64,000 nt of DNA from a bacterium. GTDB taxonomy: Bacteria > Myxococcota_A > UBA9160 > UBA6930. Location: assembly GCA_024226235.1 (NCBI GenBank), contig JAAELW010000085.1:756-64755 (forward strand), written 5' to 3'. This document shows, piece by piece, positions 21,706 to 58,993 of this stretch. The notes below the pieces were generated by a model that was not told the origin of the DNA, searched no databases, and saw only the letters and a program-made list of their open reading frames with translations. The position numbers and the translations under genes are program-made. Every line of letters starts with the position of its first letter. Within the stretch, counting starts at the first letter, position 1.

Positions 21706-21721
21706 TGCAAGGCGAATGCCA
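21706..21721 (-). promoter_or_regulatory. sigma54 (-24/-12) promoter of the flgB operon
   Basis: Minus-strand reading TGGCATTCGCCTTGCA (TGGCAY-N5-TTGC), 44 nt upstream of flgB ATG. Confidence 0.8.
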
Positions 21722-21792
21722 CTGGGAAATGACGCCTCCGACACGCAGCGGGCGTTTCGGACCGAAGCAGCCTCCCGTGTTGCACCGCTGCA

Positions 21793-21805
21793 TTTCAACC
21801 TGAAC
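21793..21805. promoter_or_regulatory. TTTCA-N3-TGAAC palindromic motif (candidate enhancer/UAS), copy 1
   Basis: ATTTCAACCTGAACGGCGG, about 80 bp upstream of the flgB sigma54 promoter; 17/19 nt identical to copy 2. Confidence 0.55.
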
Positions 21806-21843
21806 GGCGGAGGGGAAAATCCTGCCGCGTCTGCAGGCCGGAA

Positions 21844-23130
21844 TCAGGCGAGTTCGTACAGGCGGATCTTGTTGCGCAGGGTACGAACGCTGATTCCGAG
21901 CGCCTGGGAGGCCATGGTTCTGTTTCCGTCTGTGATTTCGAGCGAGCGGATCACCGCGGCGCGTTCCAGCTCGCGCAAGTTGAGCGAGCGCAATCTCGAA
22001 GACAGGGAATCCCCCGAGGCTCCACCGGATGAAACCAACCGGTCCAGGTCAATGGAACGCCCGGGGTAGAGCAGGGCGGCGCGACGCATCAGGTTCTCGA
22101 GCTCGCGGACGTTCCCACGAAACGGGCGGGTCGAGAGACTTGCAAGTGCGGAATCGCCGAGCTCTGCTTTCTCGGTTCCGGAGCTCTTGGCGAAGCGGTC
22201 CAGGAAGGAGTCGGCCAGGAGTGCGATGTCGCCGGGGCGCTCACGCAGCGGGGGAATCCGCAGACTGACGACATCGAGTCGATAGTAGAGGTCTGCGCGA
22301 AAACGACGAGCCGCTACTTCCCGATCCAGATCGCATTGCGTGGTCGCGACGACTCGTACGTCGAGCGCGTGCGATGTGCGGCCACCTAGCGGAATCACTT
22401 CTCGCTCCTGCAGTGCGCGTAGCAGCTTCGGCTGAAGATCGAGCCGCAGGTCTGCGACTTCGTCGAGCACCAATGTTCCACCATTGGCCGCAGCCAGCTG
22501 GCCGGACCGGGATTCGGTGGCGCCGGAAAACGCACCTTGGGCGTGCCCGAAGAGTTCGCTCTCCGCCAGCGCAGGCGTGAGACCTGCACAGCTCAGTACG
22601 ACGAAGGGTCCGCGTCGGCGGGTGCTCGCATCGTGAAGCCAGCGGGCAAGCAGCTCCTTTCCCGTTCCGGACTCTCCGACCAGACGAACCGTCGCTTCAC
22701 TCTTGGCAACTCGACGAAGTTGGTCCAGGACCGTACGCATGCGTGGATCTTGGGTCAAGAAGGTAGAATCCACTGGACCGTCGTTCTCTCTCCGCAAGAC
22801 CTGGGCCAAGGCCCGCTCCAGGGAGGACACGTCGAAGGGCATGCGCAGGTAGTCCGCCGCACCCACGCGGAATGCATCGACGACGAGGTCGACGCCGGGT
22901 TGCCCGCCCACCGCAACGACGCCGACGTCTGGCGCGACACGTCCGAGCTCTTCGACAAGGTGCAGGTCCGCGTGACAACTCACCTCGACGAGCGAGGCAT
23001 CGATATCGCCATCGGCTGCTCGTTCCAGAAGGACCGAATCGTCCGCTCCCTCTTCGGCCGCATAGCCGGCGGCGCGAACGACCGAGAGCACGTCCCGACG
23101 CAGACCTTCATCGCGCAACCGTGCGAGCAC
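21844..23130 (-). CDS. sigma54-dependent transcriptional activator (FleQ/FlrA-like) with degenerate receiver domain
   Basis: AAA+ core GESGTGKE, GAFSGA, C-terminal Fis-type HTH (ASQALGISVRTLRNKI). GTG 23130 lies 2 nt after the upstream stop. The N-terminal REC-like region lacks the acidic pocket, phospho-Asp and Lys. Confidence 0.9.
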   Translation of the reverse strand: MLARLRDEGLRRDVLSVVRAAGYAAEEGADDSVLLERAADGDIDASLVEVSCHADLHLVEELGRVAPDVGVVAVGGQPGVDLVVDAFRVGAADYLRMPFDVSSLERALAQVLRRENDGPVDSTFLTQDPRMRTVLDQLRRVAKSEATVRLVGESGTGKELLARWLHDASTRRRGPFVVLSCAGLTPALAESELFGHAQGAFSGATESRSGQLAAANGGTLVLDEVADLRLDLQPKLLRALQEREVIPLGGRTSHALDVRVVATTQCDLDREVAARRFRADLYYRLDVVSLRIPPLRERPGDIALLADSFLDRFAKSSGTEKAELGDSALASLSTRPFRGNVRELENLMRRAALLYPGRSIDLDRLVSSGGASGDSLSSRLRSLNLRELERAAVIRSLEITDGNRTMASQALGISVRTLRNKIRLYELA

Positions 23131-23132
23131 CC

Positions 23133-23717
23133 TCAATCCAGTTCTCCGGCTGGGATCCAGAACACGGCGCCATCCGCGGTAACCTCGGCTTCGGCGCCGC
23201 AAAGCAGTGCCAACGGTTGAAGGCGCTTCAAGATATCCGCTGCGTTCTGCGAACCCTCGCCTCTGGGCTGCCATCGGGCCTCGACGCCCCAGCAGCCATC
23301 ACCCGCCACAAGTCCCACTTCGAGAAGACCCGGCTGCGCCTGTTCTGCGGCCGCGCCGGTGAGAGCAATGACGGCCCGGCGCAACACGGCCGGATCCAGC
23401 GAGGGTGAATGCTTGGCGGCCACTTGCAGTTCGAGCCCGCGTGCTGCAAACACCGGACGCAACCGCTCGGTCAGTTCCTCGAGGACAGGTCCAGAGGGAC
23501 GCTCCCGCCCCGGGCTGGAAGGAGACAGCACGCGCAGCGCCAGCTCGAGCTGACGATCGATGGCCGCCACGGCTTCGTGGATGGATTGCGCAAGCTCCCC
23601 GGATCGGGGCGTTCGGTCTTCCCGATCGAGACGGCTGGCCGCGAGTTCGACGCGCGACAGAGGCGCACGGATGTCGAGAATCGCAGATGCCAACTCTGCG
23701 TCACGAGTCGCACTCAT
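23133..23717 (-). CDS. soluble histidine-kinase-like protein lacking the phospho-His and ATP-lid motifs
   Basis: 194 aa; H-box-like ILDIRAPLSRVELAASRL with Asp where His is expected. HATPase-like region (LRRAVIALTGAAAE, GLLEVGLVAGDG) has no N-box Asn or G-boxes. ATGA overlap with the upstream gene. Confidence 0.65.
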   Translation of the reverse strand: MSATRDAELASAILDIRAPLSRVELAASRLDREDRTPRSGELAQSIHEAVAAIDRQLELALRVLSPSSPGRERPSGPVLEELTERLRPVFAARGLELQVAAKHSPSLDPAVLRRAVIALTGAAAEQAQPGLLEVGLVAGDGCWGVEARWQPRGEGSQNAADILKRLQPLALLCGAEAEVTADGAVFWIPAGELD

Positions 23718-25861
23718 CGAAGAGCCTCTCCGCCTGGAAGGGCGGCGCGAGGCGACGATGAAAACTGCGATACACCCACCTCCTCTTGCAGATCGACGGC
23801 CCGCAGCTGGGCACTTGCCAATCGGCTCCAGAGCTCGGATGCGGCCTTCGATTCGGCGGCCTCTTCGTATGCTTGGCGTCGCTGTCGGCCTTCGGAGAGA
23901 CGCGCACGATGAAAACGCGCACGGGCACGCCTGGGACCATCGGGAAGCGCCTCGGCAGCGAGGCCGTAGTAGTAGTGGGCGCGCCTGGGTTCGCCTTCGG
24001 CGGCCAGCCGGTCGGCCAGGATCAGCGCGACACCCGCTCGAATGGAGACCTCGGCAACATCCGCCTGGGGGTCTGGCTCCAGTTGCCAACGCGACGTCTC
24101 GTCTTCGAGAAGAGTCCGAGCCTCCTGGCCGGCAGCCTGCTCGGCTACCAACTCCGCCAACCATCCAAGTGCTCGAAGGGGCGCGTCCGGGCGCCGCACG
24201 ATCGGCAGCAGGAGTTCGGCGGCTGCCTCCTTCCGACCCTCGCGTATCGCCAGCTCGGCCTCGAAGAGAGACCAGCTGTCACCGGCCAGGCCGCCCGCCG
24301 GAACATCCGCCGAACCACCTCCCCGTGTATGAGCTCGCAAAGCAGCGCGCACGGCGGGAAGATCTCCTGCACCCAATGAAGCCCGTGCGATCCGGAGCGT
24401 GAGCCGGGATGCGAGTTCGGGACCAAATGCCCGGGTCACCGCGCGATAGCTGGCCAACGCCGGCACCGACATGCCGAGCGCCAGATAGCAGTCGGCCAAT
24501 GCCACGAAGGGCTCGCTGACCCGGGCCTGGCGCAACAGCAGTTCGCGCCGGCCCCCCAGTCGACGTACGGTGGTCGGGCAATGGGATTCGACGGCTGCTA
24601 GAAGCGCAGCATCCAGGTCATCGCGATGGGTGGGTGCCAGCTCGTCATCCGGGTCGTCGTAGGCGAGCCGCGCATAGTCTTCCAATGCCTGGTCGACTTC
24701 ACCGGACTGCACATGCCGATGGAGGATCAATGCTCGGGCATGCAGTGAGAGGCCGCGTTCGGTGGAAATGGTGGCCTCGCGCAGCACTTCCATCCTGTCT
24801 GCCTCGGCGGCCTCCCCGAGCCCATGAGCCACGATCCGGAGCCCTGCGAGACGTCGGACATCCGGATCCGGATGCACATCGACGAGCCGCTCCAACGCCG
24901 TCAGTGCGTCCCCTCCGCGGCCGCGAGCCACCCACACATCCGCCTTGCGAATGGTCGCGAGACCGGTCGCAAGCTCATCGCCTTCGAGATCTGCAGCCCT
25001 GGAGATGTGAACCAGAGCGCGGCGCGAATCCCCCGCTCGAAGTGCGAACTCTGCGGCTACGCGTTCGAAGGCCCGCAAGTCCAGATCCCGGACGCGAGCC
25101 TCCTCGAAACGGGCGCGTAACCGCGTCCAGGCAGCTTTTGCGGGCAATTCCTTGTTCATCTCCGTAACCAGTCGCAGACGCGACGCCGTCGCCAGGCGCT
25201 CGACCGTTCCGCCGGCGAGGCTCTCGTAAAGGACGCGTGCCTCCTTTTTGCGACGAGAGAGGAGCATCGCCTCGGCCCGAAGGAACCGGGCAGCTTCGAC
25301 GCGGGCGATCGGGAGTTCTACTCCTTCTCCCTCTCGCAGCGCTCGCAGCGCCGATGCACTTGCTTCGGGGGCCTGGGCGTTATGGAGTTCCGCACGTCCG
25401 CGCTCCAGAAACCCACAAACCCGTGCTTCGCGGCTGCCGCCACGAGCCAGCGCATGGTCCAGGACGTGGATCGCATCCGCTCGGCGAATCCGCGTATCGG
25501 CGACCCTGGCACTGACGACCGCCAACCACAGGCGAAGATCCGTCGTGAGGCGTTCTCCCTCCTTGCGTCGTGCCTCCTCCGCGAGCTCGAGCACCCGGCG
25601 AGCCGCTGATTCACGATTCTCCAGCACGAAAGAAAGGACAGGCAGCAGTCCGGCCGGCGTCTCAGCCGGCAGGCAAGGTTCGAGGGCATCGAGCACGGGC
25701 AGCCAGGCCCGGCGAGTCGCAAAGATCCGGAACGGATCGGGCGGAACATCCACGGCTTCCGACGGCGGCATCTCCACCTCGGATTCGGCCAGACCTTCAC
25801 GGCCCGGAGCGACCAGCACCAGGATGACACCTACCAGGATAATCGGAATCCGGCGGTTCAC
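23714..25861 (-). CDS. membrane-anchored Ala/Arg/Leu-rich TPR-like repeat protein
   Basis: 715 aa from GTG 25861 (GTGA overlap with the PilZ stop); N-terminal TM RRIPIILVGVILVLVAPG; repeated helical-hairpin-like segments. Confidence 0.6.
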   Translation of the reverse strand: MNRRIPIILVGVILVLVAPGREGLAESEVEMPPSEAVDVPPDPFRIFATRRAWLPVLDALEPCLPAETPAGLLPVLSFVLENRESAARRVLELAEEARRKEGERLTTDLRLWLAVVSARVADTRIRRADAIHVLDHALARGGSREARVCGFLERGRAELHNAQAPEASASALRALREGEGVELPIARVEAARFLRAEAMLLSRRKKEARVLYESLAGGTVERLATASRLRLVTEMNKELPAKAAWTRLRARFEEARVRDLDLRAFERVAAEFALRAGDSRRALVHISRAADLEGDELATGLATIRKADVWVARGRGGDALTALERLVDVHPDPDVRRLAGLRIVAHGLGEAAEADRMEVLREATISTERGLSLHARALILHRHVQSGEVDQALEDYARLAYDDPDDELAPTHRDDLDAALLAAVESHCPTTVRRLGGRRELLLRQARVSEPFVALADCYLALGMSVPALASYRAVTRAFGPELASRLTLRIARASLGAGDLPAVRAALRAHTRGGGSADVPAGGLAGDSWSLFEAELAIREGRKEAAAELLLPIVRRPDAPLRALGWLAELVAEQAAGQEARTLLEDETSRWQLEPDPQADVAEVSIRAGVALILADRLAAEGEPRRAHYYYGLAAEALPDGPRRARARFHRARLSEGRQRRQAYEEAAESKAASELWSRLASAQLRAVDLQEEVGVSQFSSSPRAALPGGEALR

Positions 25862-26442
25862 TCCTCGCTCGCAACCCGTTGGCGAAGCTCCGAACGCTGG
25901 ATTTCGAGCACGTGAGCGATGATCGCATCGCGATCGCATTCGGCGATGACCGTGAAACCTGCCCCGATGGTCACCTGTTTTGCATCGACCTCGCATTCCG
26001 CGACTCGAGCAATGCAGCGCACCATGTGTTTGGGAATGCCGGGCAGGGTGACCTCGAGAAGCACGTCGGCCTCGATCGGTATCTCCTCGCAGACCGGAAG
26101 CTGGATCCCGGATCCGGAGATGGTCACTTCGAGAGCACCCTGTGCGGTCGTCCAGACATCGGCTTCCGTTTCGAAGCGTTCGAGCAGGAGGTCGAGCTTC
26201 CCCTCGATACGATCGAGCCATTCGGCGAGACCGGGATCGACTTTCGAAACCTCGGACGCCTCGCGAACCATGATGTCAGTAGACAGGCCCTCTAGCTCGG
26301 AATCCGCAATGCGCCGGCAACGTACCGGTAGAAAGGTGTGTACTCGGTAGTAGGAACGCTTGTCCGCACCGCGGGGCTGGGCTTTAGGAACGCTCAAGGG
26401 ACAATCCTCCAGACTTCTCGTACCGCTATCAGCAAATGGCAT
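25858..26442 (-). CDS. PilZ domain protein (putative c-di-GMP receptor)
   Basis: 194 aa; KRSYYRV (RRxxxR variant) and VTISGSGIQL ((D/N)xSxxG variant) separated by a helical insert. Confidence 0.7.
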   Translation of the reverse strand: MPFADSGTRSLEDCPLSVPKAQPRGADKRSYYRVHTFLPVRCRRIADSELEGLSTDIMVREASEVSKVDPGLAEWLDRIEGKLDLLLERFETEADVWTTAQGALEVTISGSGIQLPVCEEIPIEADVLLEVTLPGIPKHMVRCIARVAECEVDAKQVTIGAGFTVIAECDRDAIIAHVLEIQRSELRQRVASEE

Positions 26443-26606
26443 GCCAGGTCGGGACGCGTCAGGGGAACGCTTTGCGCACTCCGCGTTTCATCTTGCAAGC
26501 CTTTCCGTTTCAGCCGCAAGAAATTGAAGCTAGTTGGCGGAGAGTTACTTCCGTTCTGCCACTTCGTGTAAAGCTCTGGCAGGAATGCGCCGACGTGGGA
26601 TAAGTC

Positions 26607-27449
26607 ATGGCTCGAAGCTTCGAATCGATCAAGCGAGAACTCGAACGCCGCTACGACGCGGGCAAGATCGAGCTTCCCCCGTTGCCGGAAGTCGCTCAGC
26701 GGGTTCTGGAGACCGCATCCGATCCACTGACTGCCGCAACGGATCTCGCCACTCTCGTACACCGGGATCAGGGCCTGGCCGCTGAGGTCCTGAAGGGCGC
26801 CAACTCCGCGATGCAGGCGGGCCGGGTTGTCATCGTATCCCTGCAACAAGCCGTTGCGCGGCTCGGCATCGAGCGCGTGGTAGAGCTCGTGATCGCTGCC
26901 AGCATACGAGACGGCGTGTTCTCCGTACCTGGCTTCCAAGAAGAGCTCCGGCTGCTCTGGCGTCGCTCGCTAGGCACTGGCCTCTTTGCAAAAGAGGTGG
27001 CGCGTGTGCTTCGCGAAGACGTCGAAGCCGCCTTTCTCTCTGGACTCCTGCGTAGCGTCGGCACAGCCCTGTTGATCCGCGCCCTCGCCCGTCTTCGCCG
27101 TGCAGACGAACCCTCCATGCAGCCTGAAGATTTCCGGGAGCTGGACATCGCATTCCGCGTTCGACTGGGACTCGATGCGGCCTCGACCTGGGGGCTTCCT
27201 GACCATGTTCGCGATGCGATCGACTTCGACGAATCGACCGCACTGGAAGAGGGGAATGGGAACGCGCTGCTGATCTTGTTGGCCGAACGTCTCTTCGATC
27301 TGCTCGACACTGATGAAGCGAGCGAGGAGAAGGAGGAGGCACTTCGCAGTGATCCGATCCTCGACGAGTTGGGAGTCTACCCCGACGACCTGGATACGCT
27401 GTTCGGAAAGCGGGAGGAGATCCGGGATATGCTGGAGAGTGGCGGGTGA
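26607..27449 (+). CDS. HDOD domain protein
   Basis: 280 aa; LPPLPEVAQRVLETASDP...LATLVHRDQGLAAEVLKGANSA...SLQQAVARLG. Confidence 0.8.
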   Translation: MARSFESIKRELERRYDAGKIELPPLPEVAQRVLETASDPLTAATDLATLVHRDQGLAAEVLKGANSAMQAGRVVIVSLQQAVARLGIERVVELVIAASIRDGVFSVPGFQEELRLLWRRSLGTGLFAKEVARVLREDVEAAFLSGLLRSVGTALLIRALARLRRADEPSMQPEDFRELDIAFRVRLGLDAASTWGLPDHVRDAIDFDESTALEEGNGNALLILLAERLFDLLDTDEASEEKEEALRSDPILDELGVYPDDLDTLFGKREEIRDMLESGG

Positions 27450-28843
27450 CCAAGCGTACGAAAGTCGACCTTCTGGTTCTGGGCGGCGGGCCTGGCGGGC
27501 AGAAAGCAGCCATCGCTGCTGCGAAAGCGGGAAGACGGGTGATCCTCGTCGAATCGGGGCGGGATGTCGGCGGCGCCTGTGTCCACAAGGGAACCATCCC
27601 CAGCAAGGCGTTGCGTCAGCTCGCAGTCGAAGCTTGCGGCGACGACGACACGCTCGGAGATGCTGGCGAAGGGGAGAGGGCCATTCCCCTGGCCGAGATG
27701 AAGACCCGCGTCGATGCTGTGCGGGCTGGCCATAGCCGGTTCATGCGTGCTCAGCTCGAACGCAATGGGATCGGAATCGAGCGCGGTCGAGGCCGTTTCG
27801 AAACCGATCACGTGGTTTCGGTGACGACGCCGCGGGGCGCAGTCACGGAATTCGAAGCTGAACACATCATCATCGCCACTGGTTCGCGGCCTCGCGAACC
27901 CGACGGTTTTTCGATCAACCACGAGCATGTCCTCGATAGCGATTCGATCCTCTCGCTCAGCTACGTACCCGATAGCCTGGTCGTTCTGGGTGGTGGAGTG
28001 ATCGCGTGCGAATACGCTTCGATCTTCTTGACTCTGGGAAGTCAAGTGACGATCGTAGACCGTGCGCCGCGGCCATTGGCCTTTCTCGACCCGGATCTTT
28101 CCGCCGGCTACGTCGAAGCCTTCGAGCGCCGGGGTGGACGCTACGTCCCCGAAGCTCAGGCGACTGGAATCGAGTGGGACGGTTTCTCAAAAAACATGGT
28201 CGCCCTGGCGGATGGCAGCTTTTTCGAGGCCTCGAAGGTCCTTGTCGCCCTTGGCCGAGTCGGTTGTCTCCCCGAGCTGGCCCTCGAGCGGGCGGGCCTC
28301 GAGGCCAGTTCCCGCGGCCTGCTCGAGGTGGATCAGGATCTTCGGACTCGCGTGCCGCATATCTATGCGGTCGGCGACGTGATCGGACCACCGGCCTTGG
28401 CCACGACCGCGATGGAGCAAGGCCGCCGCGCTGCGACGCACGCCGTGGGTGGAAGCATAGCGGAAGGCGTATCCGCACTTCCGGTCGGTATCTACACGAT
28501 TCCCGACATGGCTACGGTCGGCCTTTCGGAATCCGAGGCTCGAGATCAGGGGTTCGAGGTTGCGGTCGGAAGAGCGCGCTTCGATGAACTCGCGCGAGCA
28601 CTCATCAACCACCGCACGGAAGGCTGGCTCAAGCTCGTTTCCGACCGCACGAACGGCCGTATTCTCGGCGTGCAGATCCTGGGCGAGAACGCAACGGATC
28701 TGATCCACGTCGGGCAGGTGGCCATCCACGCGGGTTGGAGTGCGGACGATTTCGTCGAGAACGCCTTCAACTTCCCGACCTTCACCGAGGCTTACCGCGT
28801 GGCCAGTCTCGCAGTGCTTGAGGAACTCACGCCTACTGGTTAG
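27446..28843 (+). CDS. sthA: soluble pyridine nucleotide transhydrogenase-like flavoprotein (SthA / Lpd family)
   Basis: 465 aa; GGGPGG FAD motif and GGACVHKGTIPSKALR (single Cys, Thr at the second Cys position as in SthA); GTGA overlap with the HDOD stop. Confidence 0.75.
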   Translation: MTKRTKVDLLVLGGGPGGQKAAIAAAKAGRRVILVESGRDVGGACVHKGTIPSKALRQLAVEACGDDDTLGDAGEGERAIPLAEMKTRVDAVRAGHSRFMRAQLERNGIGIERGRGRFETDHVVSVTTPRGAVTEFEAEHIIIATGSRPREPDGFSINHEHVLDSDSILSLSYVPDSLVVLGGGVIACEYASIFLTLGSQVTIVDRAPRPLAFLDPDLSAGYVEAFERRGGRYVPEAQATGIEWDGFSKNMVALADGSFFEASKVLVALGRVGCLPELALERAGLEASSRGLLEVDQDLRTRVPHIYAVGDVIGPPALATTAMEQGRRAATHAVGGSIAEGVSALPVGIYTIPDMATVGLSESEARDQGFEVAVGRARFDELARALINHRTEGWLKLVSDRTNGRILGVQILGENATDLIHVGQVAIHAGWSADDFVENAFNFPTFTEAYRVASLAVLEELTPTG

Positions 28844-28845
28844 GA

Positions 28846-28871
28846 GAGGGACCCTATCGAAGAGGTCCCTC
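28846..28871. terminator. hairpin between convergent sthA-like and GGDEF genes
   Basis: GAGGGACC-N10-GGTCCCTC, 8-bp perfect stem; no clear U-tract. Confidence 0.45.
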
Positions 28872-28873
28872 GC

Positions 28874-29998
28874 TCAACCCTCTTCATCCTGGGTGGGTTC
28901 CGAAGCTTCGGGAGCTATGGTGTCGATCGCGAGAGCGATTCGATCCCGCCCCAACTCCTTGGCCTGATAGAGTGCGCGATCCGCTCGATCGAACCAACTC
29001 CTGGCATTCTCACCTGGCTCGAGTCGCGCCGCACCGATCGAGACCGAAACCCGGATCGGCTCGTCCTCGCCCTCACAGGGGATGTCGAGTTCGCGGATCG
29101 CAAAGAGCAGCCTGTCGCCGATTCGGTTTGCCGTTTCGAGGCTGTCTTCGAGGATCACGGCCGAGAATTCGTCCCCACCGTAGCGGGCCAGGAAGTCGCC
29201 CTTGCGTCGGAAGGTGACGGACAGTCTCGCTGCTACCTGACGAAGCACGTCATCACCCGCCGCATGGCCGTAGCGATCGTTGACCCATTTGAAGTGGTCC
29301 ACATCGATCATGAACAGGATGGCGGGCTGCCGGAGCACCAGGCCCAGGCTGACCACACGTGAGACCTGCCGATCGAGGCCAGCGCGGTTGCAAACCTCTG
29401 TCAACGCATCGACCGAAAGTTGCTCCTTGACCTCCACGAGTTCACTCGCCATCTCGTTGACCTGGTCTGAGAGATCGTCGATCTGTCCCTGCTCTCGGAT
29501 CTTCCGACCTTCGATTCGACTCTGGATCAGTGAAATCGACGAGAGTGCCTCTCGCTTCAAGACCTCAGTGTCATTCGATTCGACGGCCCGGCGAAGATCG
29601 AGCATCTTGGCTGCGACTTCACCGTCCGCCTGGCGGTCCTCGGAGATCGCCTGACCGAGGCTCTGGATGAACTGCCAGATCACCTGACGAAGGTCGTCCA
29701 GGCTACGCGTGACGAAGTCGTACTCGGCCCTGCGATGCTCGCGAACGAAACGTCCGAGCCCATTCCAATCCTTCTGATTGGCGGGCGGCGTCGACGGATC
29801 GTCGAGACCCGGACGCGGTGACGCCAACACCGCATGACGGGCCCAGCCCTCGAAATCCTGTTGGATCTCTTCTTCGGAGCGCCCCGCAATTTCGATTGCC
29901 AACTCGCCCCAGGTGCGCAGCGCACCGGCGAGTGCATCGAGCACTGCGTCTTCGTCGTTTCCGGTCTTGGGCGAGCGCTTCTTCGAGGTCGGTGCCAC
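28874..29998 (-). CDS. diguanylate cyclase (GGDEF) with intact I-site
   Basis: GGDEF preceded by RKGD five residues upstream (RxxD I-site). GTG 29998 preferred (AAGGAGGT 4 nt upstream) over track start 30034. The N-terminal ~200 aa are helical and unrecognised. Confidence 0.9.
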   Translation of the reverse strand: MAPTSKKRSPKTGNDEDAVLDALAGALRTWGELAIEIAGRSEEEIQQDFEGWARHAVLASPRPGLDDPSTPPANQKDWNGLGRFVREHRRAEYDFVTRSLDDLRQVIWQFIQSLGQAISEDRQADGEVAAKMLDLRRAVESNDTEVLKREALSSISLIQSRIEGRKIREQGQIDDLSDQVNEMASELVEVKEQLSVDALTEVCNRAGLDRQVSRVVSLGLVLRQPAILFMIDVDHFKWVNDRYGHAAGDDVLRQVAARLSVTFRRKGDFLARYGGDEFSAVILEDSLETANRIGDRLLFAIRELDIPCEGEDEPIRVSVSIGAARLEPGENARSWFDRADRALYQAKELGRDRIALAIDTIAPEASEPTQDEEG

Positions 29999-30050
29999 AG
30001 GTACCTCCTTGGCACCTGTTTCGGCCGATTGCACGTCGCGGAAGATCGGG

Positions 30051-34081: not shown

Positions 34082-34906
34082 CTACTGGAGCAAGGCCAAC
34101 GCGTTCTGCGTCGACACATTCGCCTGGGCGAGCACCGAGATACCAGCCTGTTGCAGAACCTGGTTCCGCGTCAAGATGGCGGTCTCCGATGCAATGTCGA
34201 CGTCCCGGATTCGAGACTCGGCAGCCGCTGTATTCTCGACCGAGACCGCGATCGAACGGATCGTGGACTCGAGACGATTTTGAGCGGTACCGAAACCGGC
34301 GCGCAGAGACGCGACGGTGCCGATGGCCGAGTCGATCAACGACAGGGCCGCCTGGGCGTTGGTCACCGTATCAATACCAGCTCCGCTGATACCGATTCCA
34401 GTCGATGTGGCGTTCACGCCAGTGACCGTGATCTGGTCATTGGTTGTGTTGTCCACGCCCACCTGGAAGGTGATGCTGGCCGCAGTACCGTCCAACAGCG
34501 AAGTGCCATTGAACTCGGTGACCTGGGCAATTCGTCCGATCTCGGACACCAGGTCGTTGAACTCGTTGTCCAGTGTCGTACGCTCGGCGGTCCCGAGGGT
34601 GCCGTTTGCCGATTGGATCGCGAGTTCGCGCAGGCGCGTCAGAATGCCACTCGACTCGTTGAGGGCACCTTCCGCGGTCTGCAGCAGCGAGATGCCGTCA
34701 TTGGCATTTCGCTGCGCCTGCTGAAGGCTCCGCACCTCTGCGCGGAACCGCTCGGAGATCGCCAGCCCGGCTGCATCATCGGACGCGCGGGTAATCCGCA
34801 AGCCCGAAGACAGTCGTTCCAGCGAACGCTGCAGGTTGTTGGTCGTATTTGACAGGTTTCGCTGCGCGTTAAGCGAAGCGATGTTCGTGTTGACTCGAAG
34901 ACCCAT
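34082..34906 (-). CDS. fliC: flagellin (short, 274 aa)
   Basis: MGLRVNTNIASLNAQRNLS...LSSGLRITRASDDAAGLAISE and C-terminal LAQANVSTQNALALLQ; ATG 34906 with GGAGGAAAG SD. Confidence 0.95.
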   Translation of the reverse strand: MGLRVNTNIASLNAQRNLSNTTNNLQRSLERLSSGLRITRASDDAAGLAISERFRAEVRSLQQAQRNANDGISLLQTAEGALNESSGILTRLRELAIQSANGTLGTAERTTLDNEFNDLVSEIGRIAQVTEFNGTSLLDGTAASITFQVGVDNTTNDQITVTGVNATSTGIGISGAGIDTVTNAQAALSLIDSAIGTVASLRAGFGTAQNRLESTIRSIAVSVENTAAAESRIRDVDIASETAILTRNQVLQQAGISVLAQANVSTQNALALLQ

Positions 34907-34935
34907 GGGGTTTTCTTTCCTCCGTGAACGGTCCT

Positions 34936-34958
34936 GGCTCACCTATCCTTGGTGAGCC
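34936..34958 (-). promoter_or_regulatory. 5'UTR hairpin presenting a GGA loop (candidate CsrA binding site 1)
   Basis: mRNA sense GGCUCACC-AAGGAUA-GGUGAGCC. Further GGA motifs at 34931..34935 (AGGAC) and in the SD 34916..34924 (CGGAGGAAA). Confidence 0.6.
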
Positions 34959-35079: not shown

Positions 35080-35095
35080 TGCAAGGCGGGTGCCA
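35080..35095 (-). promoter_or_regulatory. sigma54 (-24/-12) promoter of flagellin
   Basis: Minus-strand reading TGGCACCCGCCTTGCA, about 175 nt upstream of ATG 34906. Confidence 0.8.
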
Positions 35096-35231
35096 GAAGC
35101 CCTGGATGAAAACCCCGAGGGCGTCTACGGGCTTCGCCGTCCGGCGACAGACACGCGGTCTTCCCTCGACCCATGCACGCATGCTGCATGTGTGTGATGC
35201 CCAGCACGCCTTCGGCCTGCGACGAGAAGCA

Positions 35232-35244
35232 TTTCAACTCGAAA
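35232..35244. promoter_or_regulatory. TTTCA-N3-CGAAA motif (candidate enhancer/UAS), copy 3
   Basis: ATTTCAACTCGAAAGG, about 140 bp upstream of the flagellin sigma54 promoter. Confidence 0.5.
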
Positions 35245-35325
35245 GGTTGGAACACAATTCGTCGTTCGCGAGCGACGAGGATGCGTGCCAGCACGGCATC
35301 GTTCTTGCGGGACTCCGATCCAGCG

Positions 35326-36462
35326 ATGGAAAGAGACTCCATGAAGGGAAAGGACGATCCGGTCTGCCATGTGACCGCAGAGCTCTGGCCGGAAGTGGTC
35401 GCGTGGCTCGATCGCGGACTTCGGCGCGATATCCAAGGAAGGCTCGAGGCTGAGTACCCGATTTCGCTGCGGCCTGAGAACGCCAGCTCCCAGATCCTGA
35501 TCTGCGACGACGGTCGGCCACTTTCCCATTCGATGTATCAGCACCTGGCCGCACGAATCGGCGATTTGAGGCTGAGGGTGGGGTTGATCGGCCTGGTCTA
35601 CACGGAAGAAGACGCGAGGGGTCGGGGCCTGGCGGGTCGTTGCGTACAGGCCTGCGTGGAAGAGCTTCGAAGCGAAGGTGCAGCCCTGGCCATTCTGTGG
35701 AGCGATCGGCATGCCTTCTACGAGCGATTGGGCTTCCACCCCGCCGGGAGAGAACGATTCCTGACCCTGGATATCGAGGTACTGGAGCGGGCGAGCGCGG
35801 GCGGGAAGTCCGCCATCCAGGTCGATGTCGGCATTCCAGAAGCCAGGGACTGGCCAGCAATCGAAGAGCTCTACGATGCGAGGAGTTTCCGAGCCGAACG
35901 CCGGGCCGGCGATCTCGTCCGGCTGGCTGCGGCGCCTGATGTGGACTTTCGAGTTGCTCGCCGTGCTGGCCGGCCGGTCGCCTATGCAGCGCTCGGTCGC
36001 GGAGATGACTTCGCGGAGGTCGTCCACGAATGGGCCGGTGAGCAAGCGGGCGTATTCGAATGCCTGGCAGCATTGCTTCGCGGGCGTTGTGCAGTAGGCC
36101 TGATGACGGGCCCGGAAGACGGAGCCCTGGTAGCGCGCCTGCGAGCAGCCGGAGCGGCCCAACATCAGGGCATCTTCGGATTGGTGCGCCTGCTCGACCC
36201 GCGCAGACTTTGGAAGAGCGTCCGGTCGGATGTTCCGGAACTCGAGGGGGTCGAGATGGCGTCAACGACGGGCGGGGTTCGCATTGCGGGAAGTGAAGGA
36301 GCCGTGGAAATCACCGAACGAGAGGCGCTTGCATTGCTGCTCGACGGAGCCATCCGTCCTGATCTCTGCGCACTGGCACCTGCGCTCTCACGGCAGGAAC
36401 GCGATGGCCTCGAAAAGCGCCGATCCCTTTCTCTCTATCTCTGGGGCTTCGATTCGATCTGA
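35326..36462 (+). CDS. GNAT-family N-acetyltransferase, long Eis-like architecture
   Basis: RGRGLAGRCVQACVEELRSEGAALAILWSD...FYERLGF acetyl-CoA motif plus a ~220-aa C-terminal extension. Start ATG 35326 or 35341. Only plus-strand gene inside the flagellar block; its 3' end overlaps fliW by 28 nt. Confidence 0.75.
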   Translation: MERDSMKGKDDPVCHVTAELWPEVVAWLDRGLRRDIQGRLEAEYPISLRPENASSQILICDDGRPLSHSMYQHLAARIGDLRLRVGLIGLVYTEEDARGRGLAGRCVQACVEELRSEGAALAILWSDRHAFYERLGFHPAGRERFLTLDIEVLERASAGGKSAIQVDVGIPEARDWPAIEELYDARSFRAERRAGDLVRLAAAPDVDFRVARRAGRPVAYAALGRGDDFAEVVHEWAGEQAGVFECLAALLRGRCAVGLMTGPEDGALVARLRAAGAAQHQGIFGLVRLLDPRRLWKSVRSDVPELEGVEMASTTGGVRIAGSEGAVEITEREALALLLDGAIRPDLCALAPALSRQERDGLEKRRSLSLYLWGFDSI

Positions 36463-39597: not shown

Positions 39598-40119
39598 CTA
39601 CACCGTCCGCCGAATGAGCTGACCCACCCCAGACCTGCCCGCGGAGCTGCCATCTGTGATTGATTCCGGCGCGTAGGTGACCTCGAAAGGCACGAGCCCT
39701 CCGAGCAGGCGCAGGGTTCCGCGCACCTGGGAGAGCGCATTGCCCGCAAGTACGTTGTTCGCGTCCATCAGCTCCCGAACCACACTGACCAACACGACGA
39801 GCCGGGTATGTGCCTCGCGCAATGCACGACCCTCAGGGCCGATCCTCTCACAGATCGTAGAGAGGCGCGGTCGCACTTCGTCGAAGCCCAGCTCGCGAGT
39901 CATCATTTCGCACAGGGACATTCTTGTCTCTTCGACCAAACGGCCTTCGTCCGCCAGCTCCTCTTTTCGTCTTGCAACGTCTTCCAGGCCTTCGGCGTCC
40001 AAAGTGACCATCAAACCATGCTCTTGCTGGAGCAAATCCCTGAGTTCGACGTAGAGCTTTTCCTCGGCATCGAGCACTGATGCCAGGCCAGTGATCCCGG
40101 CTTCCAGGTTTGAGGTCAC
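39598..40119 (-). CDS. flgN: FlgN-family flagellar chaperone
   Basis: 173 aa; LASVLDAEEKLYVELRDLLQQE pattern; position directly upstream of flgK. Confidence 0.75.
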   Translation of the reverse strand: MTSNLEAGITGLASVLDAEEKLYVELRDLLQQEHGLMVTLDAEGLEDVARRKEELADEGRLVEETRMSLCEMMTRELGFDEVRPRLSTICERIGPEGRALREAHTRLVVLVSVVRELMDANNVLAGNALSQVRGTLRLLGGLVPFEVTYAPESITDGSSAGRSGVGQLIRRTV

Positions 40120-42964: not shown

Positions 42965-43743
42965 CAGATGTTCGCTGCAGTCTGGAGCATCTCGTCACCG
43001 GCCTGAATCACGCGGCTGTTCACTTCGAATGCGCGTTGAGCCAGGATCATCTTCACCAACTCTTCGGCCATGTTCACGTTCGACGATTCGAGAAACCCCT
43101 GGCCGATCGTGCCGAAGCCCGTGGACCCAGGTGTTCCGGTCTCTGCGTCGCCAGACGACTCGCTCGGAACGAACAGGTTGTTGCCCAGAGCGCGCATCCC
43201 AGAGGGATTCGCGAAGCGCGCAATTTCGAGCTGCCCGAGCTGCTGGGGTGCCGTTTGTCCCGCGATCAGCGCCGAAACGGTCCCATCTTGCAACACTGTC
43301 ACCTGAATGGCATCGATCGGAATCTGGATGTTGGGATCGAGAAGATTCCCCTGGTCGTTCACCAGGTTGCCGTCGGAATCCAGATGGAAAGAGCCGTCGC
43401 GGGTATAGAGGACCTGGCCACCGGTATCCGCGATCTGGAAGAGGCCATCGCCATCGATCGAGAGGTCGAAGTCTCGGCCCGTATTCGTTCGAGTGCCCTG
43501 TGAGAAGACCCGATTCATACCACCGAGCTTCACCCCGTGTCCCACCTGGGCTCCGGTCGGCAGTGTCGTGCCGTCTGCCGACTGGGCTCCCGGAGCTTGA
43601 AGGGTCTCATAGAAGAGATCCTGGAATTCGGCGCGACTCTTCTTGAAGCCGGTCGTGGAGACGTTCGCCAGGTTGTTGGCGATCGTGTCAATGCGGAGCT
43701 GCTGGGCGTCCATCCCGGTCGCCGCTGTGAACATTGCCCTCAT
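42964..43743 (-). CDS. flgG: flagellar distal rod protein FlgG
   Basis: 259 aa; TGMDAQQLRIDTIANNLANVSTTGFKKSRAEFQDL, C-terminal MILAQRAFEVNSRVI. Confidence 0.95.
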   Translation of the reverse strand: MRAMFTAATGMDAQQLRIDTIANNLANVSTTGFKKSRAEFQDLFYETLQAPGAQSADGTTLPTGAQVGHGVKLGGMNRVFSQGTRTNTGRDFDLSIDGDGLFQIADTGGQVLYTRDGSFHLDSDGNLVNDQGNLLDPNIQIPIDAIQVTVLQDGTVSALIAGQTAPQQLGQLEIARFANPSGMRALGNNLFVPSESSGDAETGTPGSTGFGTIGQGFLESSNVNMAEELVKMILAQRAFEVNSRVIQAGDEMLQTAANI

Positions 43744-44480
43744 TGTGAGAACTCCCGAATCAATTGGTCGGTTGCGCTGTCATCTGCTCGCATGACTTGC
43801 ATGCTGGCATCGAATTGGCGTTGCAGGATCATCATCGTGGCGAGTTCCTGAACGGCCTTGACGTTCGATCGCTCCACGGAACGAGGCAGCATGCGTACCG
43901 TTCCGACGGGAATTCCGACCGCTTCGGGTGGCGCACGGAAGAGGTTCGAACCCTCTTTCTGCAGCATCCGGGGATCGTCGAATTCCTCGACGCGTAGCCG
44001 GCCGAGTACATCGCCCTGGCTGTCCACGATCTCTCCACTGGCACGGATCTCGGCCTGGGTCGAGCCCACCTGGATCGGCCCGCCATCTCCCAGCACCGGG
44101 CGACCATCCAGGGTCGAGAGGGTTCCCGCGGCATCCACGATGAAGGAGCCGGCACGCGTGTATCGGATCCCAGCCGGGGTCTCGACCGCAAAGAAGCCGG
44201 GCCCATCGATCGCTGCATCGAGAGCTCGGCCCGTGCTGGCGATGACGCCCGTGCTTTGATCGCTGGTCACCCCGGCAAGTGCCACGAAGGATCGGGCTGG
44301 ACTGCCCGAAGCGAGACCGCCTTCCGTATCGCGAATCTGGGATTCGAGGGCAGCCTGGAACTGCGGCCGATCGGCCTTGTACCCGAGCGTATCCACGTTC
44401 GCGAGATTGTTCGCCGTGGATTCAAGCTGCTGGAAGCGAGCGATGGCTCCGGATGTCGAGACGTAGAGCTCGGTACCCAA
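43740..44480 (-). CDS. flgF: flagellar proximal rod protein FlgF
   Basis: 246 aa; TTG start with GGAGG SD; ANNLANVDTLGYKADR; MILQRQFDASMQVM. Confidence 0.9.
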   Translation of the reverse strand: MGTELYVSTSGAIARFQQLESTANNLANVDTLGYKADRPQFQAALESQIRDTEGGLASGSPARSFVALAGVTSDQSTGVIASTGRALDAAIDGPGFFAVETPAGIRYTRAGSFIVDAAGTLSTLDGRPVLGDGGPIQVGSTQAEIRASGEIVDSQGDVLGRLRVEEFDDPRMLQKEGSNLFRAPPEAVGIPVGTVRMLPRSVERSNVKAVQELATMMILQRQFDASMQVMRADDSATDQLIREFSQ

Positions 44481-44518: not shown

Positions 44519-44534
44519 AGCAAGACCCATGCCA
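44519..44534 (-). promoter_or_regulatory. sigma54 (-24/-12) promoter of the flgF-to-fliW operon
   Basis: Minus-strand reading TGGCATGGGTCTTGCT, about 40 nt upstream of the flgF start. Confidence 0.8.
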
Positions 44535-44659
44535 CCTGAAGGTAGGAAGAACTTGCCGGGTGAAACGTCTCTAACCCCGGCTGAGCCCGTTTGGCGCACG
44601 CCAGGAGGTGAATGCAAGGCGCAAGCGGCAAGTTAGGCCCCCATCCCGTTTCACTCGGG

Positions 44660-44672
44660 TTTCAACCTGAAC
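44660..44672. promoter_or_regulatory. TTTCA-N3-TGAAC motif (candidate enhancer/UAS), copy 2
   Basis: GTTTCAACCTGAACGCCGG, about 130 bp upstream of the flgF sigma54 promoter; an extra TTTCA half-site at 44649..44653. Confidence 0.55.
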
Positions 44673-44680
44673 GCCGGGAA

Positions 44681-54898: not shown

Positions 54899-56329
54899 TC
54901 AGCCGTTCAGCGGAAAGCGGCTGGTGCGCACACGGGCGTCACCCTCGATTCCGAACTCTTTCAGCCGTCGCCAGAGCGTGGTCGTGGATATCTGCAACAG
55001 CTCGGCCGCTCGCTTCCGATTCCAACCAACCTTGTCGAGCGTCTCCAGGATGTGGCGTCGTTCGACTCCGGGAAGACTCTGGATGCCGGTCTCGAGCACG
55101 AGGCGCTTCGGCTCACGAACGTGCAGCGGAAGATCATCCACCTCGATTCGACCGCTGCGGCTCAACGCGACGGCTCGTTCGATTGCGTTCTCGAGCTCGC
55201 GCACGTTTCCGGGCCAGTGGTAGCCTGCAAGCCGATCAAGGGCTGCATCATCGATCTCTTCGATGGGAAAATTCGCCTTGGTCGCCATTCGGGCCAGGAA
55301 GTGCCGCGCCAGCAGGGGAATGTCCTCGACCCGCTCGCGAAGCGCAGGAACGTGCACGGGGATGACTGCCAACCGGTAGTAGAGGTCTTCCCGGAAGCGG
55401 CCTTCGGCGACTTCGACTTCCAGATCCTTGTTGGTTGCGGTGACAAGGCGGACATCGACGTAGCGCGTTGCTTCGTCACCCACCGGCCGGATCTCACCGG
55501 TCTGAAGGAAACGCAACAGCTTCGCCTGCATCGAAAGCGGCATCTCGGCCACCTCATCCAGGAAGACCGTGCCCCGATCGGCATGCTCGAACAGACCTTT
55601 GCTGTTGGAAGTCGCTCCTGTGAAAGCTCCTCGACGGTGTCCAAAGAGCTCACTCTCGAGGAGTGTCTCGGGAAACGCTGCTGAGTTCACGGCAGAAAAC
55701 ACCCGGTCGCTTCGTCTGCTCGCTTCGTGAATCGCCCGCCCGATCAGCTCCTTCCCAGTTCCTGTCTCGCCGGTGATCAACGCCGTGCTGTCGGTTTCGG
55801 CGATCTTTCGGACCAGTTCGAGGAGCTCCCGCATGGCCAGGGATTCACCAATGATTCCGGGGAAACGACTTCTGAAACCAGTCGAGCTGGGCCGCGTCCG
55901 GTTGGGTCGGCATTCTTCGGTGACCTTGGGCAGCCGGTTGACGACCTCTTCGATGGCGTCGGCTTCCCACGGCTTTCCGAGGAAATAGGAGACGCCCGCC
56001 TGGTTGATCGCGAGTTGGGCAATGCGAGGATCCTCGAGGCCGGTGATCAGCACTCGACTGAGCTCGGGCCACATATTGCGAACCGTCGCCAGCAGATCCA
56101 CGCCGGACCCGTCCTCCAGCCGCTGATCAGCGATCACACCTTCGATGCGCTCGGACTGAAGCAGCTCCAGGGCTTGGGCCACGTCGCCGGCCTCGATCGG
56201 TCGGACGTCGAGACGCGTCAACGCCCGCCCAAGCGCGCGGCGCACCATCGGATCGTCGTCGACGACCAGCACAGTCGGCAGCGGCGCGTTCAGCTGCTGC
56301 CTGTCCTTTTCTTCCCACCGTCCGTTCAT
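54899..56329 (-). CDS. sigma54-dependent response regulator (FlrC/FleR-like, NtrC family) with canonical receiver
   Basis: REC VLVVDDDPMV...GVIADQRLEDGSG...FLGKPW; AAA+ GETGTGKE, GAFTGA; Fis HTH. ATG 56329 with GAGGTGG SD. Confidence 0.9.
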   Translation of the reverse strand: MNGRWEEKDRQQLNAPLPTVLVVDDDPMVRRALGRALTRLDVRPIEAGDVAQALELLQSERIEGVIADQRLEDGSGVDLLATVRNMWPELSRVLITGLEDPRIAQLAINQAGVSYFLGKPWEADAIEEVVNRLPKVTEECRPNRTRPSSTGFRSRFPGIIGESLAMRELLELVRKIAETDSTALITGETGTGKELIGRAIHEASRRSDRVFSAVNSAAFPETLLESELFGHRRGAFTGATSNSKGLFEHADRGTVFLDEVAEMPLSMQAKLLRFLQTGEIRPVGDEATRYVDVRLVTATNKDLEVEVAEGRFREDLYYRLAVIPVHVPALRERVEDIPLLARHFLARMATKANFPIEEIDDAALDRLAGYHWPGNVRELENAIERAVALSRSGRIEVDDLPLHVREPKRLVLETGIQSLPGVERRHILETLDKVGWNRKRAAELLQISTTTLWRRLKEFGIEGDARVRTSRFPLNG

Positions 56330-56559
56330 TTTGGAGCCACCTCGTTCGCGTCTCCGCGAATAACTGCCGGCGGGAGAGGGTGAGCCGGCTGCTGTCATGG
56401 GCTCATCGATCGGCGGAAGAACGGGCCACCTTGACGGTATTTTTGGACTTTTCCGTCGTGGCTGGATTTCGAGGCGCGGTGGTTGGGGGTCTACTGCCTC
56501 ATTTCAGCCGGTCGTTTCAGGTGTTTCAAGGAGAAAGGTCAGGCGGAAGATTCTTCCAC

Positions 56560-58205: not shown

Positions 58206-58799
58206 CTACCCCAGTGCTTCGTTGGAACAGAGCGGTGCGACTCTTCCTCGAGTCTCTCCGAGCACGGGCGCGATCTCATACTCCAGGTAGTCGGCCACGC
58301 GAATCCAATCTTGCGCTTGCTGGGCATCCGCCAACGCATCCAGCCACGGCTGCACCTTGGCGGTGATCTCCTCGACCGAATTTGCTTCGGGACCGAGGTG
58401 CTGGGAAGCCGCCTGGAGCGTGAAGAGCAGAATCGACATCGCGTCGATCGTGTCGATGAAGCTGTCGTTCGCGACTTCCGGTCGATCCGTGCGCATCAGC
58501 TGTGCCGTCTTGAAGAGCGCCTCTCGAACGCGGTCCGCGTACTCTCCGGCGCTTGCCAGGCTCTGTCGGGCGACCTCGCACACTGAAGCGGTTTCGACAT
58601 CGACCCGCTCGCATTCGTCCAGCGAAACCCTCGACAAGTCATCGAGGTCTCCCGCGGGTACCTCCTGGCCGTCGAGCGACAACCGGACCACCACTCGGGG
58701 CTCGGCCTCCGGCCGATTCAGGTACGGGAGAAGCAGGCTTTCCACATCCGTATGGATTCCTTCGACTTCTGCCTCTTGGCCATCCTTGATCAGGCGCAT
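58206..58799 (-). CDS. hypothetical protein, first gene of the sigma54-driven motAB unit
   Basis: 197 aa from ATG 58799 (AAGGAGGT SD lies between the two candidate ATGs); acidic, N-terminal beta-rich and C-terminal helical; no family recognised. Confidence 0.65.
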   Translation of the reverse strand: MRLIKDGQEAEVEGIHTDVESLLLPYLNRPEAEPRVVVRLSLDGQEVPAGDLDDLSRVSLDECERVDVETASVCEVARQSLASAGEYADRVREALFKTAQLMRTDRPEVANDSFIDTIDAMSILLFTLQAASQHLGPEANSVEEITAKVQPWLDALADAQQAQDWIRVADYLEYEIAPVLGETRGRVAPLCSNEALG

Positions 58800-58856: not shown

Positions 58857-58872
58857 TGCAAGTGGCGCGCCA
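58857..58872 (-). promoter_or_regulatory. sigma54 (-24/-12) promoter toward hypothetical-motA-motB
   Basis: Minus-strand reading TGGCGCGCCACTTGCA, 58 nt upstream of ATG 58799. Confidence 0.7.
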
Positions 58873-58888
58873 AGGCACGGGTCTTGCT
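58872..58888 (+). promoter_or_regulatory. sigma54-like (-24/-12) promoter toward the glycosylation genes
   Basis: Plus-strand AAGGCACGGGTCTTGCT; GG-N10-GC spacing correct; 13/16 nt identical to the flgF promoter TGGCATGGGTCTTGCT; about 105 nt upstream of ATG 58994. Confidence 0.65.
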
Positions 58889-58966
58889 CTCAGGTCCTGA
58901 TGCGGCCTTCTCTCGCCTGTTGGAGCGAGAAGAGGGTGGATCGGGTTCCCGATCGAAACCGCGACG

Positions 58967-58979
58967 TTTCAATCTGAAA
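58967..58979. promoter_or_regulatory. TTTCA-ATC-TGAAA perfect palindrome (candidate enhancer/UAS), copy 4
   Basis: GTTTCAATCTGAAAGCG, about 100 bp upstream of the motA-side sigma54 promoter and inside the leader of the plus-strand operon. Confidence 0.55.
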
Positions 58980-58993
58980 GCGAGACGGAAAGA

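Follow-up and report, generated by a model that had tools for sequence, protein, structure and literature searches.

Copies of the dyad TTTCA-N3-TGAAA that recur in the gaps of a large flagellar gene cluster are, with a probability that we place at about 0.7, activator-bound upstream activating sequences (enhancers) of a lineage-specific flagellar sigma-54 regulon. The cluster lies in the window, by which we mean the whole 64-kb stretch of DNA that was analyzed, and most of its genes (Pfam and NCBIfam annotation) are on the minus strand. An initial annotation had read four copies of the palindrome as candidate enhancer sites, and that reading is supported as far as sequence analysis reaches. 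In the mechanism that we propose, a dimer of a cluster-encoded sigma-54 activator would bind each palindrome via its C-terminal Fis-type helix-turn-helix (HTH), neighboring half-sites would help the activator assemble into an active AAA+ ring, and DNA looping over 50-145 bp would bring this ring to the sigma-54 RNA polymerase at -24/-12, where ATP hydrolysis by the ring would open the promoter. One motif would in this way serve all seven sigma-54 promoters found in the cluster, each of which has a site within 47-144 bp, namely those of flgB, flgF, flagellin, DUF8042-motAB, the PilZ-activator 1 operon, the glycosylation operon and the GNAT gene.

Recurrence, conservation and phasing of the motif

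The window contains 6 matches to TTTCANNNTGAAA with at most one mismatch, against 0.66 expected and a count reached by none of 100 shuffles, and each of the six falls in a regulatory gap of the flagellar cluster. A stricter pattern chosen post hoc, TTTCAAYNYGAA, gives 4 matches where 0.03 are expected. The motif is therefore far above chance and confined to regulatory gaps, rather than occurring at similar frequency in random DNA. The four copies first reported have the positions and sequences given for them: those at 21793-21805 and 44660-44672 are both TTTCAACCTGAAC and identical over TTTCAACCTGAACG, that at 35232-35244 is TTTCAACTCGAAA, and that at 58967-58979 is TTTCAATCTGAAA, a perfect palindrome. 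Two further copies that had been described as weaker relatives are likewise present (26486-26498, and 56524-36 within a cluster of half-sites at 56500-56538), but the description "weaker" does not hold, because in the relatives R1 and R2 the conservation of both is close to that of the four main copies, as it also is in R3 and R6 for the first of them, upstream of the PilZ operon; the second, before the activator 2 gene, is weak in R6. The palindrome itself, a 5-3-5 dyad that fits an HTH dimer, also stands, but the unit that is conserved is larger and asymmetric. Read toward the promoter it is GTTYCA-N3-TGAAAC(G), in which the promoter-proximal half is the better kept and carries more of the information in the weight matrix, and the unit is often joined, 9-13 bp or about 21 bp from the palindrome, by one or two further half-sites like TGAAAC (at flgF, the PilZ operon, the activator 2 gene and flgB of R6). 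Sites, promoters and genes are collected in Table 1.

Table 1. Genes, sigma-54 promoters and motif sites discussed in the text
Feature	Position	Strand	Sequence	Remarks
flgB	21270-21659			Pfam/NCBIfam
Activator 1 gene	21844-23136	-		430 aa; degenerate receiver, sigma-54 AAA+, Fis-type HTH
Flagellin gene	34082-34942			Pfam/NCBIfam
GNAT acetyltransferase gene	35341-36462	+		Pfam; divergent from flagellin
flgF	43740-44480			Pfam/NCBIfam
Activator 2 gene	54899-56398	-		Longest ORF, 499 aa; receiver, sigma-54 AAA+, Fis-type HTH (NtrC type)
DUF8042 gene	58206-58799			Pfam/NCBIfam; with motA, motB
Methyltransferase/WbqC/NeuB/cytidylyltransferase operon	from 58994	+		Flagellin-glycosylation type
flgB promoter	21707-21721	-	TGGCATTCGCCTTGC	
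PilZ-TPR-195aa-activator 1 operon promoter	26432-26446	-	TGGCATGCCATTTGC	
Flagellin promoter	35081-35095	-	TGGCACCCGCCTTGC	
GNAT gene promoter	35295-35308	+	GGCATCGTTCTTGC	Reverse complement conserved in available relatives
flgF promoter	44520-44534	-	TGGCATGGGTCTTGC	
DUF8042-motA-motB promoter	58858-58872	-	TGGCGCGCCACTTGC	Conserved in R1, R2, R6
Glycosylation operon promoter	58874-58887	+	GGCACGGGTCTTGC	Reverse complement conserved in available relatives
Site 1	21791..21807	-	CCGTTCAGGTTGAAATG	Upstream of flgB; centre 79 bp upstream of -24 GG
Site 2, palindrome	44658-44674	-	GCGTTCAGGTTGAAACC	Upstream of flgF; 133 bp upstream of -24 GG
Site 2, direct extra half-site	44646-44654	-	GTGAAACGG	11 bp nearer promoter
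Site 3	35230..35246	-	CCTTTCGAGTTGAAATG	Gap between flagellin and divergent GNAT gene
Site 4	58965..58981 (core 58967-58979)	-	GCTTTCAGATTGAAACG	Toward DUF8042-motA-motB promoter; matrix score 24.5
Site 5	26484..26515	-	TTGCAAGATGAAACG	Upstream of PilZ-TPR-195aa-activator 1 operon; matrix score 24.2
Site 6 cluster	56500..56538	-	CCTTTCTCCTTGAAACACCTGAAACGACCGGCTGAAATG	Upstream of activator 2 gene; matrix score 14.4
Second conserved block beside site 4	58941-58960	-	GGTTTCGATCGGGAACCCGA	Invariant in window, R1, R2

Minus-strand -24/-12 elements were found by match to TGGC-N7-TTGC, and two promoters on the plus strand by a relaxed GG-N10-GC scan. Enhancers are expected about 70-200 bp from a -24/-12 (GG-N10-GC) promoter; five sites lie 47-144 bp upstream of one, the centre of the motif being 79 bp from the -24 GG at flgB, 144 bp at flagellin, 133 bp at flgF and 102 bp on the motA side, in keeping with the 80-140 bp originally given for these four, and 47 bp at the PilZ operon.

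Relatives were found through a graded series of homologues in a large protein database, and their contigs were then compared. They are R1 (GCA_024228115.1), R2 (a 5.8-Mb contig of ERZ25072999), R3 (a 27.6-kb Logan contig) and R6 (JGI Ga0172420_10000040), with activator 1 identities of 87, 77, 69 and 53%, and gene order is the same in all of them. No close relative was found among species-representative genomes, where the best FlhA match is 51% identical, and the nearest named homologues of the lineage are Myxococcota and Desulfobacterota metagenome-assembled genomes (MAGs). The motif is kept at each retrieved orthologous promoter for the five sigma-54-associated sites while the flanks diverge, so that the conservation asked of an enhancer upstream of orthologous flagellar promoters is seen in four relatives; the comparison omitted the R2 flagellin region, which falls in a gap between loci, the R3 flgB region, at a contig end, and the R3 motA-side region. 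The window, R1 and R2 are close, so part of this conservation is shared ancestry, and the strongest evidence from these alignments rests on R3 and R6. In a more distant Myxococcota MAG (L171; FliP 58%) the cluster is rearranged and neither a sigma-54 promoter nor the motif precedes motA, which limits the motif to the closer lineage.

Spacing is nearly constant for each promoter. Across four genomes the distances are 79, 79, 80 and 100 bp at flgB (GTTCAGGTTGAAAT, GTTCAGGCTGAAAC, GTTCAAGCTGAAAC and GTTCATCCTGAAAC), 102, 102, 102 and 123 bp on the motA side (TTTCAGATTGAAAC, TTTCAAATTGAAAC, TTTCAGATCGAAAC and TTTCAATTTGAAAC) and 144, 143, 145 and 131 bp at flagellin (TTTCGAGTTGAAA in the window, R1 and R6). 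Across five they are 133, 132, 133, 132 and 120 bp at flgF, where the palindrome is accompanied by a direct GTGAAACG 10-11 bp on, and 47, 47, 46, 46 and 59 bp at the PilZ operon (TTGCAAGATGAAAC; TTTCAGCCTGAAA in R6). In R6 the sites are shifted by 12-21 bp with helical phase kept, and the distances at different promoters are separated by close to whole turns of the helix. Taken modulo 10.5 bp, those of the window range over 5.0-7.5 and those of R6 over 4.5-7.5 (Rayleigh test, p = 0.037 and p = 0.039, respectively; pooling gives 0.002, an optimistic value since orthologous promoters do not count as independent). Fixed and phased spacing of this kind is the behavior expected of a looping enhancer.

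The specificity of the motif was assessed with a weight matrix built solely from the 17 sites of the relatives (four related metagenomic genomes), in scans that covered cluster DNA and background loci rather than whole genomes. The five sigma-54-associated sites are the top five matches in the window, with scores of 20.3-24.5, and each of the five scores better when read toward the flagellar promoter, a preference that is suggestive only. The next match scores 16.8 and lies within the flgN coding sequence (39963-39979); considered as an internal enhancer for flgK it was rejected as a chance match, with no conservation in R1 or R6 and no promoter following it, and its lack of conservation lets it serve as a negative control. 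Unrelated flagellar and activator loci totaling 1.9 Mb yielded 17 matches scoring at least 17, none with a sigma-54 promoter within 260 bp. A genome scan based on FlhA returned relatives of many phyla at no more than 51% identity, which served only as background since the strict motif is essentially absent from them, and a metagenome scan with the activator 1 alignment returned unrelated activators (31-43% identity), keyed on generic AAA+ peptides.

The individual regulatory gaps

Site 1 is conserved in R1, R2 and R6 and directly follows the stop codon of the upstream gene. Immediately past the activator 1 stop codon (21820-21843, minus strand), a hairpin, CCTGCAGACGCGGCAGG, with ATTTTCCCC behind it resembles a weak intrinsic terminator and separates activator 1 from the candidate flgB enhancer; a simple terminator scan did not call it. 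In R2, and only there, a YjbR gene (L082 11299-11640) is inserted between activator 1 and flgB. Despite this insertion the R2 motif keeps its distance of 80 bp to the flgB promoter and so stays with the promoter. At site 2 the palindrome and the direct half-site are both kept in R1, R2 and R3, with a perfect TTTCACCCTGAAA in R3, and R6 keeps the palindrome.

Site 3 lies between divergent genes and is upstream of the GNAT promoter too, with 57 bp from its centre to the GG; the GNAT transcript is predicted to start at about 35320 (+). Its TTTCGAGTTGAAA is identical in the window, R1 and R6, with TTCCAGGATGAAAC at the same distance in R3, and at the GNAT promoter CGCAAGA(A/T)CG(A/G)TGCCG is conserved in R1, R3 and R6. 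The GNAT protein may be a flagellin- or nonulosonic-acid-modifying enzyme that is co-regulated with flagellin.

At site 5 it is TTGCAAGATGAAACG that lies 47 bp upstream of the -24 GG, with CTGAAACGG 22 bp further upstream; the site is conserved in R1, R2 and R3, and in R6 it is a perfect TTTCAGCCTGAAA. The sigma-54-driven operon that follows encodes a PilZ-like protein, a TPR protein of 715-835 aa, a 195-aa protein without a recognized family and, last, activator 1. Genes for an HDOD protein, a GGDEF cyclase and a 339-aa protein carrying a receiver at its C terminus lie close to this operon, and the stretches 23133-26442 and 26607-30034 form a dense c-di-GMP-type signaling module within the flagellar regulon. 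Elsewhere the cluster encodes FlhA, FlhF, an FlhG-like ATPase, an HDOD protein, fliL, fliM and fliP.

Site 6 combines an imperfect palindrome with two direct half-sites and is conserved in R1 and R2. No sigma-54 promoter was found downstream of it, and a conserved sigma-28-like element is there instead, so that a protein bound at site 6 would also act at a non-sigma-54 promoter. The element lies in a conserved block just upstream of activator 2 (56407-56454), GGAAAAGTCCAAAAATACCGTCAAGGT-N13-GCCGATCG. This block persists even in R6 and looks like a sigma-28 (FliA) promoter (TCAA-N16-GCCGAT). By Pfam and NCBIfam annotation the 64-kb window contains no fliA gene, and an HDOD gene occupies the place where fliA usually follows flhF-flhG.

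Site 4 lies 15 bp before the ATG of the methyltransferase gene at 58994. It does lie, as first stated, in the leader of the divergent glycosylation operon, which has its own conserved sigma-54 promoter; no sigma-70-like promoter was seen in the gap. The two promoters there, with starts predicted at about 58848 (-) and 58899 (+), stand back to back, with abutting -24 elements, so that the footprints of two polymerases would overlap, which suggests mutually exclusive firing of motAB and the glycosylation operon. The site centre lies ~99 bp downstream of the GG of the plus-strand promoter, so site 4 would be placed to serve both, lying upstream of the minus-strand promoter and at ~+75 within the plus-strand leader. 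In the alignment of this gap across four genomes, the motif and the promoter elements are the only invariant blocks, the longest being AGAGCAAGACCC(G/A)TGCC, the reverse complement of the plus-strand promoter; within the site the columns TTTCA..T.GAAAC are invariant in the window, R1, R2 and R6, and the flanks diverge. If the two promoters do share one candidate enhancer, an unusual arrangement, motor and flagellin-glycosylation genes would be coupled.

Two other features lie in the same gap. An inverted repeat with an 11-bp stem (58906-58936) lies between the promoters and site 4, within the leader predicted for the glycosylation operon; R1 and R2 preserve its pairing through compensatory changes, with both sides altered in 6 pairs, and it has no U-tract. 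The second conserved block beside site 4 holds a further GTTTCG half-site and, in the window, a GATCGGG-AA-CCCGATC dyad; this block may be another protein-binding site or belong to the leader RNA.

Candidate binders and rival readings

If the sites are enhancers, a cognate activator might be expected nearby, and two AAA+/HTH_8 activators are encoded in the cluster, one of them beside site 1. For activator 1 the best named family is FlbD, with a score of 331 bits against a cut-off of 750 bits, which does not make it an FlbD equivalog; a database protein (P0001) is 100% identical to it over 430 aa, its real start lying 46 codons into a longer ORF. The real start of activator 2 is probably the ATG at 56329. 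The FleQ N-terminal domain was not detected in either protein. The HTH of both is nearest to the DNA-binding domain of Aquifex NtrC4, that of activator 1 is invariant in 24 homologues and that of activator 2 in four genomes. Given that both are nearest to NtrC4 and invariant in the motif-bearing genomes, the DNA-binding domains do not discriminate between the two as binder. Their recognition helices differ (SVRTLRNKIR versus TTTLWRRLKE), and with a single motif class this leaves one activator without a site.

Between the two we lean slightly to activator 1, a tentative choice at somewhat under even odds overall, as it is FlbD-like, is encoded beside site 1 and has the motif before its own operon, where it would amount to autoregulation. 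Against it, characterized FlbD relatives bind GGCA-N4/5-TGCC and not this motif (PMC3333781). The half-site cluster before its gene and the LuxO-like geometry of the sites keep activator 2 in play as the less probable binder of the two, at roughly three chances in ten overall. A bolder extension, that the whole flagellar program is run from one enhancer motif and sigma-54 alone, with site 4 feeding two mutually exclusive promoters, seems to us rather unlikely. If true, it would place the rod, hook-associated, flagellin, stator, flagellin-modification and activator operons under one motif, with no tiers of distinct activator boxes and no sigma-28 flagellin class.

The rival that survives best, improbable as we judge it, is that the motif is the operator of a regulator other than a sigma-54 activator, a repressor or co-regulator linked to c-di-GMP or to a checkpoint and encoded in or outside the cluster, which would tune every flagellar promoter, with the activators working from solution or from further, unrecognized sites. 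Site 6, which precedes a sigma-28-like and hence non-sigma-54 promoter, is consistent with such an operator, as is the PilZ site, whose distance of 47 bp to the -24 GG is short for an enhancer. Many c-di-GMP components (PilZ, GGDEF and two HDOD proteins) and uncharacterized proteins (DUF8042, the 339-aa protein with its C-terminal receiver, and proteins of 94 and 195 aa) are encoded in the cluster, and some flagellar activators work without DNA binding, Helicobacter FlgR being an example. However, no other protein with a recognizable DNA-binding domain was found in the cluster, and both activators keep intact, invariant HTH domains. The position of the sites also argues against an operator, since operators usually overlap the promoter, whereas positions of -70 to -170 from the start site combined with helical phasing are typical of enhancers.

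Much less probable is an architectural role, in which the motif would be an IHF/HU/Fis-like bending site that aids looping from another, unidentified enhancer. An IHF site is commonly found between the enhancer and a sigma-54 promoter, and the present sites have a higher A/T content than the window as a whole (62% G+C), but the motif is a specific dyad of high information content, and the IHF consensus WATCAANNNNTTR has no match in the window. Nor is there a second conserved motif further upstream that would be the true enhancer; at flgB the site directly after the upstream stop codon leaves no room for one.

Least credible of all is a hairpin acting in RNA, or what is left of a dispersed or miniature repeat, with no protein-binding role for the DNA: site 4 does lie in a predicted plus-strand leader where RNAalifold draws a 5-bp hairpin, and sites 1 and 2 follow upstream genes, but the stem has only 5 A/U-rich pairs around a 3-nt loop, the pairs are invariant and never covary (so that sequence and not pairing is conserved), the leader folds no better than shuffles (z = -1.6), no transcription is predicted through sites 3 and 5, which lie upstream of the promoters on either side, and a 13-17-bp element with unrelated flanks and a fixed distance to DNA promoter elements is unlike a repeat. 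Hairpin and terminator readings of the palindrome were accordingly rejected on the fold, covariation and terminator scans.

Comparison with known activator sites

Enhancers of flagellar sigma-54 activators are a well known kind of element, and the general picture of sigma-54 control is unchanged by the sites proposed here; the consensus is new. FlbD-like regulators have the largest flagellar sigma-54 regulons (PMC3333781, PMC4641369). The ftr sites of FlbD in Caulobacter are CCCGGCA-N5-TGCCGGG and the DVU1063 motif of Desulfovibrio is GGCA-N4-TGCC (PMC3333781), with DVU1063 sites downstream of the promoter at +40 to +70 (PMC4641369). The likeness to the present system lies in dyad enhancers common to many flagellar sigma-54 promoters, including those of hook, rod and flagellin genes, in an activator with an atypical receiver and in the placing of some sites downstream of the promoter (PMC4641369). 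The only matches to GGCA-N4/5-TGCC in the window, at 60668 and 36505, are outside regulatory regions, and the NtrC consensus is absent from the six regulatory regions.

The Pseudomonas FleQ box is GTCaNTAAATTGAC, from which the motif had already been said to differ, and FleQ, FlrA, FlbD and DVU1063 boxes are indeed all absent from the six regulatory regions. FleQ and FlrA resemble the proposed system in being master sigma-54 activators of flagellar genes, in their link to c-di-GMP signaling and in their use of dyads near promoters, sometimes in the leader. Their half-site (GTCA) and spacing (N6) are different, the FlrA box being GTCA-N6-TGGC and the DVU2894 box yGTCA-N6-TGACr (PMC4641369). GTCA-N6-TGAC has no match in the window, and GTCA-N6-TGGC has three, all in coding DNA away from promoters.

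In geometry the LuxO site TTGCAWWWTGCAA, an experimentally defined activator site, and the SypG enhancer TTCTCANNNTGMDWN, both 13-bp 5-3-5 dyads of Vibrionaceae (PMC10162802), match the present motif. Like it, they fit TTNCA-N3-TGNAA, lie upstream of sigma-54 promoters with several sites per promoter possible, and are bound by NtrC-family activators with a Fis-type HTH, the kind of activator encoded here. The LuxO box itself has no match in the window, even with an N3 spacer, nor has the SypG site in exact or relaxed form. The third base of the half-site is T/A here (TTTCA/TGAAA) and G/C in LuxO, and the spacer is G+C-rich, whereas that of LuxO is W3 (TTGCA-W3-TGCAA). The geometry is thus shared and one base per half-site differs, which makes the motif a LuxO-type form and not a LuxO box; the PilZ-operon site TTGCAAGATGAAA is literally half LuxO-like. 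The targets also differ, being flagellar, motor and glycosylation genes here and Qrr sRNAs or syp for LuxO and SypG, and the host belongs to a different phylum-level lineage from the Vibrionaceae. If the enhancer reading is correct, these sites would provide a precise cis-regulatory code for flagellar control in an uncultured lineage without characterized relatives and would extend the TTNCA-N3-TGNAA class of sigma-54 activator sites beyond LuxO and SypG of Vibrio.
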